DNA of 43,500 nt. Source: Escherichia coli. GTDB taxonomy: Bacteria; Pseudomonadota; Gammaproteobacteria; Enterobacterales; Enterobacteriaceae. The stretch lies in NCBI RefSeq assembly GCF_003334255.1, contig NZ_QOWU01000047.1; one strand, written 5' to 3'. Below are positions 16,091 to 23,542 of the stretch, in pieces; within the stretch, counting starts at the first letter, position 1; each line of letters starts with the position of its first letter. The notes under the pieces are model-generated. The model had not been told where the DNA came from and made no database searches. It saw only the letters and a program-made list of their open reading frames with translations. The translations under genes and the position numbers were made by a program.

Positions 16091-16960
16091 TTATTTCAGA
16101 ACAGTTTTCAGTGCTTCACCGATATCCGCCAGGCTGCGAACGGTTTTCACGCCTGCGGCTTCCAGAGCAGCGAATTTCTCATCCGCAGTCCCTTTCCCAC
16201 CGGCAATGATGGCACCCGCGTGGCCCATACGTTTGCCTTTCGGCGCAGTCACACCAGCGATGTAACCCACAACTGGCTTGGTAACGTGCTCTTTGATGTA
16301 CGCAGCTGCTTCTTCTTCAGCGCTACCGCCGATCTCACCGATCATCACGATCGCTTCGGTCTGCGGATCTTTTTCGAACATTTCGAGAATGTCGATAAAG
16401 TTAGAGCCCGGGATCGGGTCACCGCCGATACCGACACAGGTCGACTGACCGAAACCGTAATCCGTGGTCTGTTTAACCGCTTCATAGGTCAGTGTACCGG
16501 AACGGGAAACGATACCCACTTTACCCGGTTTGTGAATGTGACCAGGCTGGATACCGATTTTGCATTCACCCGGAGTGATAACGCCTGGGCAGTTCGGGCC
16601 GATCATACGAACGCCTGCTTCATCCAGCTTCACTTTCACGGTCAGCATATCCAGCGTCGGGATGCCTTCAGTGATGGTGATAATCAGTTTGATGCCTGCG
16701 TCGATGGCTTCCAGAATGGAGTCTTTGCAGAACGGTGCTGGTACGTAGATAACAGAAGCGGTAGCGCCAGTGGCAGCAACGGCTTCACGCACGGTGTTGA
16801 ACACCGGCAGGCCGAGGTGGGTGGTGCCGCCTTTACCTGGGGTTACGCCGCCAACCATTTTAGTGCCGTATGCAATGGCCTGTTCTGAGTGGAAAGTCCC
16901 CTGGCTACCGGTAAAGCCCTGGCAGATAACCTTGGTGTTTTTATCGATTAAAATGGACAT
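16091..16960 (-). CDS. sucD: Succinyl-CoA synthetase alpha subunit
   Basis: 289-aa [36 protein letters not shown]... with CoA-binding and phosphohistidine motifs. Confidence 0.97.
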
Positions 16961-18126
16961 TATTTCCCCTCCACTGCGGCAACAACCTGCTGAGCTGCAT
17001 CCGTCAGACCTTTTGCTGCAATAATATTCAGGCCGCTGTCAGCCAGTTTCTTCGCGCCGAGTTCGGCGTTGTTACCTTCCAGACGTACCACGACCGGTAC
17101 GTTAACACCCACTTCTGCTACCGCGCCGATGATACCGTCAGCGATCAGGTCGCAACGAACGATACCGCCGAAGATGTTAACCAGAACGGCTTTCACTTTG
17201 TCGTCAGAGAGGATGATTTTGAACGCTTCGGTTACACGTTCTTTGGTTGCGCCGCCGCCAACGTCAAGGAAGTTAGCCGGTTCGCCGCCGTGCAGTTTAA
17301 CGATGTCCATCGTACCCATCGCCAGACCTGCGCCGTTAACCATACAACCGATGTTACCGTCCAGCGCAACGTAGTTCAGTTCCCACTGTGCAGCCTGTGC
17401 TTCACGCGGATCTTCCTGCGACTGGTCACGCATTTCGCGCAGATCAGGCTGGCGGAACAGTGCGTTGCCGTCAGCGCCCAGTTTGCCGTCGAGGCAAATC
17501 AGATCGCCCTGTTTGGTGATGACCAGCGGGTTGATTTCGATCAACGCCAGGTCGCGCTCCAGGAAAATGGTCGCCAGGCCCATGAAGATTTTGGTGAACT
17601 GCTGAACCAGTTTACCTTCCAGACCCAGTTTGAACGCCAGCTCGCGTCCCTGATACGGCATCGGGCCAGTCAGCGGATCAAGCGCAACTTTATGGATCAG
17701 GTGCGGAGTTTCTTCCGCCACTTTTTCGATTTCCACGCCGCCTTCGGTGGAGGCCATAAAGACCACACGACGGGAACTACGGTCAACAACGGCACCGAGA
17801 TACAGCTCTTTAGCGATATCGGTCGCTGCTTCAACCAGAATCTGGTTAACCGGTTGGCCATTGGCATCTGTTTGATACGTTACCAGACGCTTGCCCAGCC
17901 AGTTTTCTGCAAAAGCACGGATGTCTTCTTTGCTGTTTACAACTTTCACACCGCCCGCTTTACCGCGGCCACCAGCGTGAACCTGACATTTCACTACCCA
18001 CGGACCGGCACCGATTTTTGAAGCGGCTTCTTCTGCTTCGCGCGGAGTAGTACAGGCATAACCCACCGGTGCTGGTAAGCCATAGCGGGCAAAAAGTTGT
18101 TTTGCCTGATATTCATGTAAGTTCAT
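16960..18126 (-). CDS. sucC: Succinyl-CoA synthetase beta subunit
   Basis: 388-aa [23 protein letters not shown]... with ATP-grasp domain; stop overlaps sucD start (ATGA). Confidence 0.97.
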
Positions 18127-18204
18127 GTGTTCTGTCCATCCTTCAGTAATCGTTATCTTTTAAACCGTAGACCGAATATTTCGTATCGCTTCCGGGCATT
18201 GTCG

Positions 18205-18480
18205 GTCACCCGTAGGCCTGATAAGACACGTTAAACGTCACATCAGGCATCGCTTGTCGGATGCGGCGCTTGCGCCTTATCCGACCTACATTGGTGGTCC
18301 CCGTAGGCCTGATAAGACACGTTAACCGTCACATCAGGCATCGCTTGTCGGATGCGGCGCTAGCGCCTTATCCGACCTACATTGGTGGTCCCGTAGGCCT
18401 GATAAGACGCGTCAGCGTCGCATCAGGCTTCAATTGCCGGAGAAGGCGATAATGCCTTATCCGGTCTACAGTGCAGGTGA
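18205..18480. repeat. Tandem array of three REP/BIME palindromic units (~91-bp period) in the sucB-sucC intergenic region
   Basis: Unit ...cgtaggcctgataagacacgttaaacgtcacatcaggcatcgcttgtcggatgcggcgcttgcgccttatccgacctacattggtggtcc... begins at 18211, 18302 and 18392; contains the REP consensus (gcctgatgcg...cgcatccggc-type palindromes). Confidence 0.85.
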
Positions 18481-18491
18481 AACTTAAACTA

Positions 18492-19709
18492 CTACACGTC
18501 CAGCAGCAGACGCGTCGGATCTTCCAGCAACTCTTTGATCGTTACCAGGAAGCCCACGGATTCGCGACCATCGATCAGACGGTGATCGTAGGACAGCGCC
18601 AGGTACATCATCGGCAGGATCTCAACCTGACCATTCACCGCCATCGGACGATCTTTGATAGCGTGCATACCCAGAATTGCGCTCTGCGGCGGGTTGATGA
18701 TCGGCGTAGACATCAGGGAACCGAACACACCACCGTTGGTGATGGTGAAGTTACCACCGGTCAGATCTTCAACGGTCAGCTTGCCGTCACGGCCTTTGAC
18801 TGCCAGCTCTTTGATTTTCTTCTCGATGTCTGCCATGCCGAGGGTATCGACATCACGCAGAACCGGCGTCACCAGGCCGCGCGGCGTAGAAACCGCCATG
18901 CTGACGTCGAAATAGTTGTGGTAAACCACGTCATCGCCGTCGATAGAAGCGTTCACTTCCGGGTAACGTTTCAGGGCTTCAACCACCGCTTTCACGTAGA
19001 AGGACATAAAGCCCAGACGGATGCCGTGGCGTTTTTCAAACGCTTCACCGTACTGCTTACGCAGATCCATAATCGGCTTCATGTTGACTTCGTTGAACGT
19101 GGTCAGCATGGCGGTGGAGTTTTTCGCTTCCAGCAGACGCTCTGCCACACGCTTACGCAGGCGAGTCATCGGGACACGTTTTTCACTACGTGCAGCCAGA
19201 GCCGGTTGCGCCGCCGGAGCAGCCGCTGCCGGAGCAGACTCTTTCGCCGGGGCTTTCGCCAGATGTTTTTCCACATCTTCACGAGTCAGACGACCACCCA
19301 CACCGGTGCCTTTAATGGCGCTGGCGTCGAGATTGTGTTCAGCCAGCAGGCGACGGATCGCCGGGCTTAACGCATCGTTGTTTTGCTCTTCCAGAGACGC
19401 CTGCTGGCGTTGCGCCGGAGTGGACGCTTTCTCTTCAGATTTGGCGCTGGTTTCTTTACCGGCGCTGTTGCCTTCACGCAGGCGACCAAGGATCTGACGA
19501 GACGTTACCGTTGTACCTTCATCTTCCAGAACCGCATCCAGAATGCCGTCTGCTGATGCCGGTACTTCCAGTACCACTTTGTCAGTTTCGATTTCTACCA
19601 GCACTTCATCACGTACGACTGCGTCGCCGGGTTTTTTATGCCAGGTTGCGACGGTGGCATCGGCTACGGATTCAGGCAGGTCAGGGACCAGAATATCTAC
19701 GCTACTCAT
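18492..19709 (-). CDS. sucB: 2-oxoglutarate dehydrogenase E2 component (dihydrolipoyllysine-residue succinyltransferase)
   Basis: 405-aa ORF with N-terminal lipoyl domain ([11 protein letters not shown]), Ala/Pro linker and catalytic domain with DHRLIDG motif. Confidence 0.97.
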
Positions 19710-19723
19710 TGTGTATCCTTTAT

Positions 19724-22525
19724 TTATTCGACGTTCAGCGCGTCATTAACCAGATCTTGTTGCTGTTTCTGGTGAACGGACATATACCCTACCGCCGGAG
19801 AGGCGGAGGCCGGGCGGCCTGCATAACGCAGAGAAGCCCCAAACGGAATCACTTCACGGAAATGATGCTGGCTGCAGTACCATGCGCCCTGGTTGAGCGG
19901 CTCTTCCTGGCACCAGACAAAATCCTTGACGTGAGCAAACTGCTGCAACACTTCCTGCATCGCTTTATGCGGGAACGGGTAGAGTTGCTCGATACGCACA
20001 ATGGCGACATCGTGTTGATTGTTCTTACGACGCTGTTCCAGCAGGTCGTAATAAACCTTACCAGAACACATCACTACGCGCTTCACGCCCTTCGGATCAA
20101 GCTCGTCGATTTCACCGATGGCTGGCAGGAAGGTGCCGTTCGCCAGTTCTTCGAGGCTGGAAACCGCCAGCGGATGACGCAGCAGGGATTTCGGCGACAT
20201 CACGACCAGCGGACGACGCATCCCGCGCAGCGCCTGACGACGCAGCATGTGGTAAACCTGTGCCGGGGTAGACGGTACGCAAACCTGCATGTTTTGCTCA
20301 GCACAAAGTTGCAGATAACGTTCCAGACGCGCGGAGGAGTGCTCCGGCCCCTGCCCTTCGTAACCGTGCGGCAGCAACATCACCAGACCACACATCCGGC
20401 CCCATTTCTGTTCGCCAGAGGAGATGAACTGGTCGATAACCACCTGCGCACCGTTGGCGAAGTCACCGAACTGCGCTTCCCAGATGGTCAGAGTGCGTGG
20501 TTCTGCGGTGGCATAACCATATTCAAACGCCAGCACTGCTTCTTCAGACAGTACGGAGTCCCAGACACGGAACGCGCCCTGCCCGTTATGGATATGTTGC
20601 AGCGGCGTGTAAGTGGAACCGTTAGACTGGTTGTGGATCACCGCGTGGCGGTGGAAGAAGGTACCGCGACCGGAGTCTTCACCCGACAGGCGAACCGGAA
20701 TGCCTTCATCAACCAGCGTGGCGTAAGCGAGGTTTTCCGCACCGCCCCAGTCGAACAGTTTCTCACCGGCAGCCATCGCCTGGCGATCGCCATAAATCTT
20801 GGCAACGCGAGACTGCATTTCAACTGCTTCCGGCACCGTGCTGATGCGTTTCGCCAGCTCCTGCAGGCGCTTCATCTCAACTTTGTTCGGGTACTCTTCG
20901 TCCCATTCGTGGTTGAGGTACGGCGACCAGGTGAAAGAGTGCATGTTCATCGGACGCCACTCTGCCACTACGCAATCGCCAGCATCCAGCGCATCGCGGT
21001 ACAGGTTAACCATCTCGGTGGCATCTTCCAGCGTCGCCACTTTTTCCTGCTCCAGCTTGTCAGCGTAGATTTTGCGCGGTGTCGGATGTTTTTTGATTTT
21101 CTGATACATCAGCGGCTGGGTTGCGCTCGGCTCGTCGGCTTCGTTGTGGCCGTGACGGCGGTAGCACACCAGGTCGATGAAGACATCACGTTTAAAGGTG
21201 TTACGGAAATCGAGCGCCAGACGGGTCACAAAGGCAACGGCTTCCGGATCGTCCGCGTTAACGTGGAAAATCGGGGCCTGAACCATCTTACCGATATCAG
21301 TACAGTACGGCGTAGAACGGGCATCCAGCGGATTAGAGGTGGTGAAACCAACCTGGTTGTTGATAACGATACGTACCGTACCGCCAACTTCATAACCACG
21401 CGCTTTCGACATGTTCAGGGTTTCCTGAACCACGCCCTGCCCGGTCACTGCGGCGTCACCGTGGATGGTGATTGGCAGCACTTTGTTGCTGCTCGGCTCA
21501 TCAAGTCTGTCCAGACGGGCACGAACAGAACCGATAACTACCGGGCTTACAATCTCAAGGTGAGACGGGTTAAACGCCAGCGCCAGGTGCACCAGGCCGC
21601 CATCGGTCTGGAAGTCAGACGAGAAGCCCATGTGGTATTTCACGTCACCCGTGCCGAGGTGTTCTTTATGTTTACCGGCGAACTCGTCGAACAAGTCTTG
21701 CGGTTTTTTACCCAGCACGTTCACCAGCACGTTCAGACGACCACGGTGCGCCATCCCGAGAACCACTTCGCGGGTGCCGCTGTTGCCAGCGTGGCGGATC
21801 ATCTCTTTAAGCATCGGGATTAACGCGTCACCGCCTTCCAGCGAGAAGCGTTTTGCGCCAGGGAATTTTGCGCCGAGGTAACGTTCAAGACCTTCAGCGG
21901 CGGTCAGTTCGCTTAAGAAGCGTTTTTTCTCTTCGCTATTGAAAGTCGCGCGACCAGACTCGATACGCTGTTGGATCCAGCGTTTTTCTTCGGTGCTGGT
22001 AATGTGCATATACTCGGCACCAATCGGGCCGCAGTAGGTTTGCTTGAGGGCTTCCAGCAGCTCGCCGAGTTTCATGGTTTCTTTGCCGCTGGCAAATGAA
22101 CCGACGTTGAAGGTCTCCTGGAAGTCTGCTTCGGTCAGATCGTGGAAAGACGGATCCAGATCGGCCACTTTATCTTGCTGCCACAGTCCCAGCGGATCGA
22201 GATTCGCATGCTGGTGACCACGGAAGCGGTATGCGTTAATGAGCTGCAGGACTTTAACCTGCTTCACATTGGTGTCAGGGTCGGAGATCGTTGAAGAGTA
22301 ACGTGAAGCGTCTTTCGCCAGGCGGCGGAAATATTCACGCGTTTGAGAGTGGAATTGATCCGGTTTGACTCCCGTACCAGGTAACTGCTGGAACGTCGAA
22401 CGCCAGTTAGCGTCAACCGAGTCAGGATCGGTTAAGAAGTCTTCATAGAGCTGTTCTATCCAGCTCTGGTTTGCGCCAGAGAGGTAAGAAGAGTCCAACC
22501 AGGCTTTCAAAGCGCTGTTCTGCAT
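19724..22525 (-). CDS. sucA: 2-oxoglutarate dehydrogenase E1 component (thiamine diphosphate-dependent)
   Basis: 933-aa [37 protein letters not shown]..., E1o family. Confidence 0.97.
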
Positions 22526-22704: not shown

Positions 22705-22824
22705 GCCTGATGCGCTGCGCTTATCAGGCCTACGGGTAATGACTTGTAGGCCGGATAAGGCGTTCACGCCGCATCCGGCACTGGTTGCCTGATGCGACGC
22801 TTGCGCGTCTTATCAGGCCTACGG
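22705..22824. repeat. REP/BIME palindromic elements in the sdhB-sucA intergenic region
   Basis: gcctgatgcgctgcgcttatcaggcctacg ... ggccggataaggcgttcacgccgcatccggca ... gcctgatgcgacgcttgcgcgtcttatcaggcctacg: typical REP consensus in alternating orientation. Confidence 0.85.
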
Positions 22825-22825
22825 T

Positions 22826-23542
22826 TTACGCATTACGTTGCAACAACATCGACTTGATATGGCCGATGGCGCGCGTCGGGTTCAGCCCCTTCGGACATAC
22901 ACTGACGCAGTTCATGATGCTGTGACAGCGGAATACGCTGAATGCATCACTCAAACCGTCGAGGCGGCTGTCAGTCTCGGTATCACGGCTATCAATCAGG
23001 AAACGATATGCCGCTAACAAGCCTGCCGGGCCGATAAACTTATCGGGATTCCACCAGAAAGACGGACAAGAGGTTGAACAACATGCGCAGAGAATACATT
23101 CATACAGCCCGTCGAGTTTTTCGCGCTGCTCTGGCATCTGTAAATGCTCGCGAGCTGGCGGATTTTGTCCATTATTCAACAGGTAAGGCTTAATTTTCTC
23201 ATATTGCGCATAGAATTGTCCCATGTCTACCACCAAATCGCGGATCACCGGTAAACCTGGCAGCGGGCGAATCACAATCTTCTTGCCCGGCTGGTTGAGT
23301 GCCGAAATCGGGGTAATACAGGCCAGACCATTCTTGCCGTTCATGTTCAGACCGTCGGAACCGCACACACCTTCACGGCAGGAGCGGCGGAACGACAGGC
23401 TGGGATCTTTCTCTTTTAGCTGGATAAGCGCATCCAGCAGCATCATGTCGCGACCTTCATCCGCTTCCAGGGTGTAATCCTGCATACGCGGAGCATCATC
23501 AACATCCGGGTTATAGCGATAAATTGAAAACTCGAGTCTCAT
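22826..23542 (-). CDS. sdhB: Succinate dehydrogenase iron-sulfur subunit
   Basis: 238-aa ORF with 2Fe-2S, 4Fe-4S and 3Fe-4S cysteine clusters (CREGVCGSDG, CILCACCSTSCP, CHSIMNCVSVCPKG). Confidence 0.97.
   Translation of the reverse strand: MRLEFSIYRYNPDVDDAPRMQDYTLEADEGRDMMLLDALIQLKEKDPSLSFRRSCREGVCGSDGLNMNGKNGLACITPISALNQPGKKIVIRPLPGLPVIRDLVVDMGQFYAQYEKIKPYLLNNGQNPPAREHLQMPEQREKLDGLYECILCACCSTSCPSFWWNPDKFIGPAGLLAAYRFLIDSRDTETDSRLDGLSDAFSVFRCHSIMNCVSVCPKGLNPTRAIGHIKSMLLQRNA

Follow-up and report, generated by a model that had tools for sequence, protein, structure and literature searches.

The three-unit BIME-2 between sucB and sucC of Escherichia coli and its copy-number alleles

The spacer between sucB and sucC in a 43,500-nt stretch of Escherichia coli DNA (contig NZ_QOWU01000047.1; hereafter the window) is occupied almost entirely by a tandem repeat. 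This raises the questions of which family of elements the repeat belongs to, whether its third unit marks a copy-number variant, and what such an array might do within an operon encoding enzymes of central metabolism. The genes around the spacer were assigned as follows:

16091-16960, minus strand: sucD (ORF and NCBIfam equivalog models).
16960-18126, minus strand: sucC, succinyl-CoA synthetase beta subunit, downstream of the spacer (ORF; NCBIfam NF001913, 611.7 bits).
18492-19709, minus strand: sucB (odhB), E2 succinyltransferase, upstream of the spacer (ORF; NCBIfam equivalogs NF004309 and TIGR01347, 660 and 649 bits).
18492-18494, minus strand: stop codon of sucB (ORF).
19724-22525, minus strand: sucA (ORF and NCBIfam equivalogs).

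According to the ORF list, the sucB stop codon and the sucC start are separated by 365 bp (18127-18491), exactly the length given in an earlier note on this DNA, and the array is wholly extragenic. Since both genes lie on the minus strand, transcription from sucB to sucC yields RNA complementary in orientation to the strand shown, its reverse complement; the spacer was therefore read on the transcribed (minus) strand and cut at the conserved tetranucleotides GTAG and CTAC. A 63-aa ATG ORF at 18261-18452 on the plus strand consists entirely of REP sequence, is unannotated in the RefSeq genomes inspected, and is almost certainly spurious. In transcript order, the segmentation gave:

18470-18491, minus strand: 5' flank of 22 nt from the sucB stop to the first GTAG, common to filled and empty alleles.
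18393-18469, minus strand: unit A, 77 nt, nearest sucB (Rfam naRNA4, 56.4 bits, full-length).
18436-18469, minus strand: degenerate y REP of unit A.
18429-18435, minus strand: linker AATTGAA of unit A.
18393-18428, minus strand: z2 iREP (inverted REP) of unit A.
18381-18392, minus strand: tail-to-tail linker between A and B, GGGACCACCAAT, 12 nt.
18303-18380, minus strand: unit B, 78 nt, missing from K-12 (Rfam, 59.5 bits).
18347-18380, minus strand: y REP of unit B.
18340-18346, minus strand: linker AAGCGAT of unit B.
18303-18339, minus strand: z2 iREP of unit B.
18290-18302, minus strand: tail-to-tail linker between B and C, GGGGACCACCAAT, 13 nt.
18212-18289, minus strand: unit C, 78 nt, identical to the second unit of K-12 (Rfam, 59.8 bits).
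18256-18289, minus strand: y REP of unit C.
18249-18255, minus strand: linker AAGCGAT of unit C.
18212-18248, minus strand: z2 iREP of unit C.
18167-18211, minus strand: tail of 45 nt, GGGTGACCGACAAT followed by a degenerate seventh palindromic unit ending CGGTCTAC.
18167-18197, minus strand: the seventh unit itself, a y-type iREP.
18127-18166, minus strand: sucC leader with the Shine-Dalgarno sequence, 40 nt (segmentation and outgroup comparison).

Three units follow one another with a period of 90-91 bp, each joining a y-type REP through a 7-nt linker to an inverted z2-type REP. GTAG occurs at positions 26, 115 and 206 of the transcript strand and CTAC at 99, 189 and 280, with a further CTAC at 325 in the terminal unit, so that GTAG-headed y REPs and CTAC-footed z2 iREPs alternate strictly, with inner linkers of 7 nt and outer linkers of 12-13 nt. 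The y units read GTAGGTCGGATAAGGCGC..GCGCCGCATCCGAC, while the z units, 36-37 nt long, read GCCTGATG.GACG...CG.GTCTTATCAGGCCTAC. Units B and C differ at two positions only, both in hairpin loops, and their stems are preserved.

The earlier note had described three tandem units of about 91 bp, each with inverted REP palindromes, the first two nearly identical and the third diverged, and all of this was borne out. Tandem Repeats Finder reported a single array at 18197-18470 (period 91, 3.0 copies, 87% matches, score 385), and the repeat search aligned the units at 18209-18299 and 18300-18390 with 98% identity (2 mismatches). The third copy, from 18390, which is unit A of the present segmentation, is 96% identical in its z-half and 75% in its y-half. 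The unit starts proposed then (18211, 18302 and 18392) mark this array with a phase shift of 2 nt, phase being arbitrary in a tandem repeat. Two imperfect palindromes were found in every unit (inverted repeats I3, I4, I5, I8 and I10).

The array is far beyond what chance would produce, as judged from REP-foot counts and folding energy. Against an expectation of 0.33, the window contains 12 copies of the REP foot motif CTTATCMGGCCTAC, a count that none of 100 shuffles reached, and 6 of the 12 fall in the sucB-sucC spacer. The RNA of the spacer folds with -159.6 kcal/mol, compared with -110.8 +/- 5.5 kcal/mol for shuffled sequences (z = -8.9), and single REP hairpins contribute -15 to -22 kcal/mol each (-16.4 and -21.6 kcal/mol for those of unit A). 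The outermost stem of the minimum free energy fold is formed by the end of the tail, CGGTCTAC, pairing with GTAGACCG at the start of unit A (inverted repeat I2, 18164-18178 / 18458-18472).

The repeat is a known E. coli BIME-2, named and located in the literature, where it is placed "between sucC and sucB" as a hotspot of DNA gyrase cleavage in vivo (PMC6379681); the designation REP/BIME array in the earlier note was thus correct. BIME-2 elements are defined as z2 and y units in tandem copies with a short linker and in strain-variable number (PMC3333891). Units A, B and C align end to end on the transcribed strand with Rfam family RF02564 (positions 1-77 of 77), scoring 56.4, 59.5 and 59.8 bits, respectively, against a gathering threshold of 59.5, below which unit A falls. 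The source of this family, naRNA4, is the Y-l-Z2 repeats of REP325 (PMC4550694), and since the model was built from Y-linker-Z2 REP pairs, a match to it types the sucB-sucC units as y plus z2. The IHF consensus WATCAANNNNTTR has no match within 18127-18491, and a BIME-1 reading was rejected on this account. Parts of the query match 44,151 places in 5,426 complete E. coli genomes (median 8 per genome), as befits a dispersed family. The call of z2 rather than z1, that is, of the long rather than the short form, is partly an assumption drawn from the published consensus sequences. Tandem copies, short linkers, alternating orientation and the absence of an IHF consensus correspond to the published definition (PMC3333891), and the y/z2 make-up, the extragenic, dispersed occurrence and the strain-variable copy number agree with it as well.

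The y REPs of B and C have the form GTAG plus GTCGGAT-AA-GGCGC / GCGCC-GC-ATCCGAC, with a 2x2 internal loop in the predicted fold. Binding and cleavage by TnpA_REP (RAYT) need the 5' GTAG and the AA/GC stem mismatch (PMC3333891); judged by sequence, the y REPs of B and C keep both recognition features and are candidate substrates of this enzyme.

Comparison with known systems places the array more closely. The sucB-sucC BIME-2 of K-12 shares the locus, the flanks, units A and C and the y/z2 alternation, and the window differs from it by one additional 91-bp period, consisting of unit B and the 13-nt linker. REP325, the BIME-2 between yjdM and yjdN from which RF02564 derives, is the best-studied functional analogue, being likewise composed of tandem Y-linker-Z2 units between co-oriented genes of one operon. 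It lies in a different operon, however, and has six units (12 hairpins) with a 13-nt inner linker, whereas the sucB-sucC array has three units with a 7-nt linker, of which B and C, at 59.5-59.8 bits, score only at the naRNA4 threshold. REP325 stabilises upstream mRNA, attenuates the downstream gene partly via Rho, and yields a ladder of hairpin-ended RNAs (bioRxiv 10.64898/2026.03.23.713779). BIME-1 elements (RIP, RIB), composed of a y plus z1 pair and an IHF-binding L linker, are also extragenic members of the REP superfamily arranged as inverted pairs, but they occur as single copies with a long linker carrying the IHF site (PMC3333891), in contrast to the tandem arrangement, short linkers, long z2-type z units and lack of an IHF consensus at sucB-sucC. 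REP stabilisers in polycistronic mRNAs, such as that of malE-malF, similarly form stable hairpins between cistrons of one operon, and have been proposed to bring about differential expression by protecting the upstream segment (literature cited in PMC9023263). A stabiliser role at sucB-sucC is suggested by analogy, while the discoordinate expression of SucB and SucD has so far been ascribed to pairing of Spot 42 at the 5' end of sucC (PMC6393394).

In order to determine how unusual the third unit is, the spacer and its flanks were searched against the 5,426 complete E. coli genomes, and spacers were read from annotated loci. The array is present in 2014-2019 genomes (37%). A synthetic four-unit probe with strict E-value limits detected at least three units in 1055 genomes (19.4%) and four uninterrupted units in 3; one genome has five units. 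The four-unit screen used window-type units, so that expanded arrays of the diverged APEC37 type would score lower and could be missed. By subtraction, about 18% of complete genomes carry two units and about 63% are empty. An evenly spaced sample of 59 genomes, with 12 three-unit, 9 two-unit, one 261-bp and 37 empty spacers, agrees with these frequencies. The following alleles were found, named by spacer length:

93 bp: no array, one 31-nt hairpin; FDAARGOS_1280, and an equally short span in O157:H7 strains.
261 bp: two units, with truncation of the second z iREP; strain 3-72, with an equal span in NC101.
274 bp: two units; K-12 MC4100 and SW071620, and the same span in MG1655 and BW25113.
365 bp: three units; the window, APEC37 and BL21.
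456 bp: four units; J3 and A23.
594 bp: five units; AHB21.

Absence of the array is thus the prevailing state in E. coli, and the three-unit form is the commonest filled allele, an ordinary and known copy-number polymorphism; that BIME-2 copy number differs between strains has already been published (PMC3333891). The earlier note had put the K-12 spacer at about one unit shorter and had suggested a copy-number variant, to be checked by counting units in reference genomes. The count confirmed both points: K-12 has two units, exactly one fewer than the window (274 bp in MC4100), BL21 has three and most E. coli have none, and alleles of 0, 2, 3, 4 and 5 units all exist among complete genomes. K-12 is therefore untypical of the species here, where an empty spacer is the rule and filled spacers most often contain three units.

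K-12 and the window show no mismatch over 960 positions of flanking coding sequence or over the 274 shared spacer positions, and removal of unit B from the window gives the K-12 structure, A-l12-C. On grounds of parsimony, considering the l13 linker and the two loop differences, K-12 is probably the contracted form, rather than the window an expanded one. A recent duplication in a K-12-like array is unlikely, because it would yield neither the 13-nt linker nor the two differences between B and C, while a single loss of B in the K-12 lineage would explain everything by one event.

The number of units very probably changes when the 91-bp units recombine homologously out of register or slip during replication. 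In J3 and A23, which have four units, the additional one combines the y-loop of C with the z-loop of B, a chimera that bears the mark of out-of-register exchange, or of slippage, involving B and C. The two-unit array of SW071620 and the three-unit array of APEC37 belong to a more diverged set of haplotypes sharing loop variants, so that changes in copy number are not confined to a single background. TnpA_REP (RAYT) may contribute to such changes, since the features it recognises, a 5' GTAG and an AA/GC mismatch in the stem, are preserved. In AHB21 (NZ_OZ547226, a single isolate), a 229-bp segment comprising linker, B, C and tail is duplicated in tandem, so that the spacer contains two tails and five full units; TAC is duplicated at the junction, CTAC|TACGGG, and a CTAC-to-CTAT change is common to both C copies. 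This 594-bp allele could be an assembly error. Its junction falls at the tetranucleotide targeted by TnpA_REP.

The age of the site was addressed with the empty allele and with outgroups. An exact 20-mer from the invariant sucC leader was used to scan species-representative genomes, giving 26 loci, none of them from E. coli itself, E. fergusonii, E. marmotae or E. ruysiae. E. albertii has the 261-bp form and E. whittamii the 274-bp two-unit form, and both arrays begin and end with the degenerate units seen in E. coli, a y REP and a y iREP, respectively, so the array is older than E. coli. Salmonella enterica subsp. arizonae and diarizonae, Klebsiella indica and various Citrobacter carry one REP, a REP pair or a collapsed GTAG...CTAC hairpin. 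All these elements lie at one and the same site, bordered by the conserved sequences CACCTGC(C) and GGTTTAAAGATAACGATTAC...GGATGGACAGAACAC, and the CACCTGC core of the 22-nt 5' flank is conserved across genera. On this comparative evidence the spacer is an old REP-occupied site with conserved flanks, where Escherichia, Salmonella and Citrobacter all have REPs. The 40-nt sucC leader is the same in every E. coli allele compared, while the neighbouring array differs by up to ~7%, and it is nearly unchanged across Escherichia, Salmonella and Citrobacter. Spot 42 has been reported to pair at the sucC 5' end (PMC6393394), and this pairing may be the constraint behind the invariant leader.

The 93-bp allele was placed by segmentation anchored on GTAG and CTAC, as its placement by MAFFT was misleading and the spacer mismatch counts obtained from it are not meaningful. 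Its 31-nt hairpin, which corresponds to 18167-18469 of the window, keeps the outer arms GTAGACCG...CGGTCTAC, has a predicted energy of -21.5 kcal/mol and is followed by GGTTTAAAAG. The 15-nt core ACGTGGATAGGGTGT has no counterpart in the filled alleles, and the relation between filled and empty alleles is therefore not one of simple deletion. The 261-bp spacer of E. coli 3-72 differs at 5 of 261 positions from that of E. albertii NBRC 107761, both having the truncated z iREP, and at 16-20 of 261 positions from other E. coli alleles. The flanking sucB and sucC of 3-72 show 45 differences from E. albertii over 960 positions and are E. coli-like. NC101 shares the same 561-bp span with 3-72, a match of span only. 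These sequence comparisons suggest that the 261-bp allele is either ancient and kept across the boundary between E. coli and E. albertii, or was acquired by short-patch transfer.

Several regulatory roles within the spacer were considered and rejected. Sequestration of the sucC ribosome-binding site is not indicated by the fold, the stretch from Shine-Dalgarno to AUG having a mean unpaired probability of 0.64 in both two-unit and three-unit alleles, and of 0.49 in the empty allele; the array is predicted to fold on its own and to leave the sucC Shine-Dalgarno sequence free. The spacer holds no sigma-70-like site that could serve as an internal sucCD promoter. For an intrinsic terminator, the spacer offers only a weak 7-bp stem overlapping the sucB stop codon, no more than expected by chance (1 found, 0.9 expected). 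REP-induced ribosome stalling at the sucB stop reportedly requires a REP within roughly 15 nt of the stop codon; here the first GTAG lies 22 nt past the stop and the stem later still.

A known BIME-2 that changes copy number by exchange or slippage, and has putative roles at the mRNA and in gyrase action, is very probably the best explanation of the locus. By analogy with REP325, the six strong hairpins in the sdhCDAB-sucABCD or sucABCD mRNA would form a barrier to 3' exonucleases that stabilises the sucAB segment, and would also attenuate part of the read-through into sucCD, to some extent through Rho; stabilisation and attenuation together would tilt the sucAB:sucCD ratio toward sucAB. The influence on mRNA stability and polarity that the earlier note suggested is well established for this class of elements, and would apply to sucB-sucC by analogy. 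Genome-wide, tandem gene pairs parted by REPs have raised upstream/downstream expression ratios, although REP effects are context-dependent and half-lives are not uniformly changed (bioRxiv 10.64898/2026.03.23.713779). No transcript 3'-end data specific to the sucB-sucC spacer were found in the literature. At the DNA level, by the same kind of analogy, the y REPs would be preferred sites of gyrase binding and cleavage. Binding and cleavage in vivo, with multiple cleavage sites, are reported for the two-unit allele of K-12 (PMC6379681), and because cleavage is documented at this allele of the locus, the third y REP should add one gyrase site. The array is dispensable, since most E. coli do without it, and with about 63% of strains lacking it, whatever it does is non-essential and may amount to little.

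A different reading is that the array is a functionally neutral selfish or junk repeat, turned over by RAYT or slippage at a permissive site with no meaningful effect on suc expression or topology. Its absence from about 63% of complete genomes, a copy number ranging freely from 0 to 5 and the turnover of content at the same site between genera are what this reading would lead one to expect. The gyrase cleavage documented in vivo at the sucB-sucC BIME-2 (PMC6379681) is at odds with it, as are the confinement of B/C differences to hairpin loops with stems preserved and the measurable effect of the REP class on neighbouring genes (bioRxiv 10.64898/2026.03.23.713779), so that neutrality is a serious but distinctly less probable account than the functional BIME-2. 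More doubtful still is the proposal that the series of 0, 2, 3, 4 and 5 units works as a lineage-specific dial, on which each y/z2 pair would lower sucCD read-through, stabilise sucAB mRNA or add a gyrase site. If it were true, K-12 with two units, BL21 with three, and O157 and ST131-type strains with none would differ by lineage in enzyme stoichiometry, and the ratio of 2-oxoglutarate dehydrogenase to succinyl-CoA synthetase would shift without any change in coding sequence or promoter.

The Rfam matches could also be taken to mean that each unit is a gene for an naRNA4-like nucleoid-associated small RNA that binds HU and condenses the chromosome, in line with the original naRNA4 report (PMC4550694) and with the scores of units C (59.8), B (59.5, equal to the gathering score) and A (56.4 bits). 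These scores, however, lie practically at or below the threshold, and the inner linker is 6 nt shorter than in RF02564. Moreover, any BIME-2 unit will match RF02564, because the model merely describes a Y-Z2 REP pair, and a 2026 study found that REP325/naRNA4 acts locally with no measurable nucleoid compaction, so that the HU/nucleoid function itself is disputed. A role of this kind is very improbable; the reading of the units as naRNA genes was rejected, and they are not counted as members of naRNA4. As to the third unit being an artefact of assembly or sequencing, the assembly of short reads can indeed collapse or expand a tandem repeat of about 91 bp. A 765-bp sequence from the window nevertheless recurs without a single mismatch (100% identity) in many complete genomes obtained independently from various hosts and countries, and units B and C are told apart by two fixed differences. 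This recurrence, together with the 1055 genomes with at least three units, refutes the suspicion, leaving it a negligible chance.

For the specialist, the BIME-2 between sucB and sucC holds no surprise, its element, family, location and strain-variable copy number being already known. The new details are the allele frequencies, the 0/2/3/4/5-unit series, the probable contraction in K-12, the chimeric junction unit and the conserved landing site; they provide useful context and carry little weight as a discovery. The practical consequence is that BL21 and K-12 differ at the sucB-sucC spacer, and that an allelic series on near-identical flanks offers a natural experiment on how the number of REP hairpins relates to operon polarity and gyrase site usage.

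Other REP and RNA elements were seen elsewhere in the window. The sdhB-sucA spacer (22720-22826, minus-strand transcript) contains a second REP cluster of the same operon, composed of a z2 REP, a 7-nt linker, a y iREP, a 12-nt spacer and a short z1-like REP (GTAGGCCTGATAAGCGCAGCGCATCAGGC); its first REP pair gives the strongest Rfam naRNA4 match of the window (88.4 bits, 22749-22819, plus strand). At 40195-40257, inverted REP feet, CTTATCAGGCCTAC on the plus and CTTATCCAGCCTAC on the minus strand, bracket a match to the Rfam sRNA ES036/CssrF (40201-40243, minus strand, 75.1 bits), and this annotated 'sRNA' is itself a REP. The stretches 1-600 and 1513-1651 contain a minus-strand tRNA cluster (four tRNA matches) interleaved with RtT repeats (two matches), and the CpoB/ybgF intercistronic RNA thermometer (142 bits), both of which are ordinary for this region of the E. 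coli chromosome.
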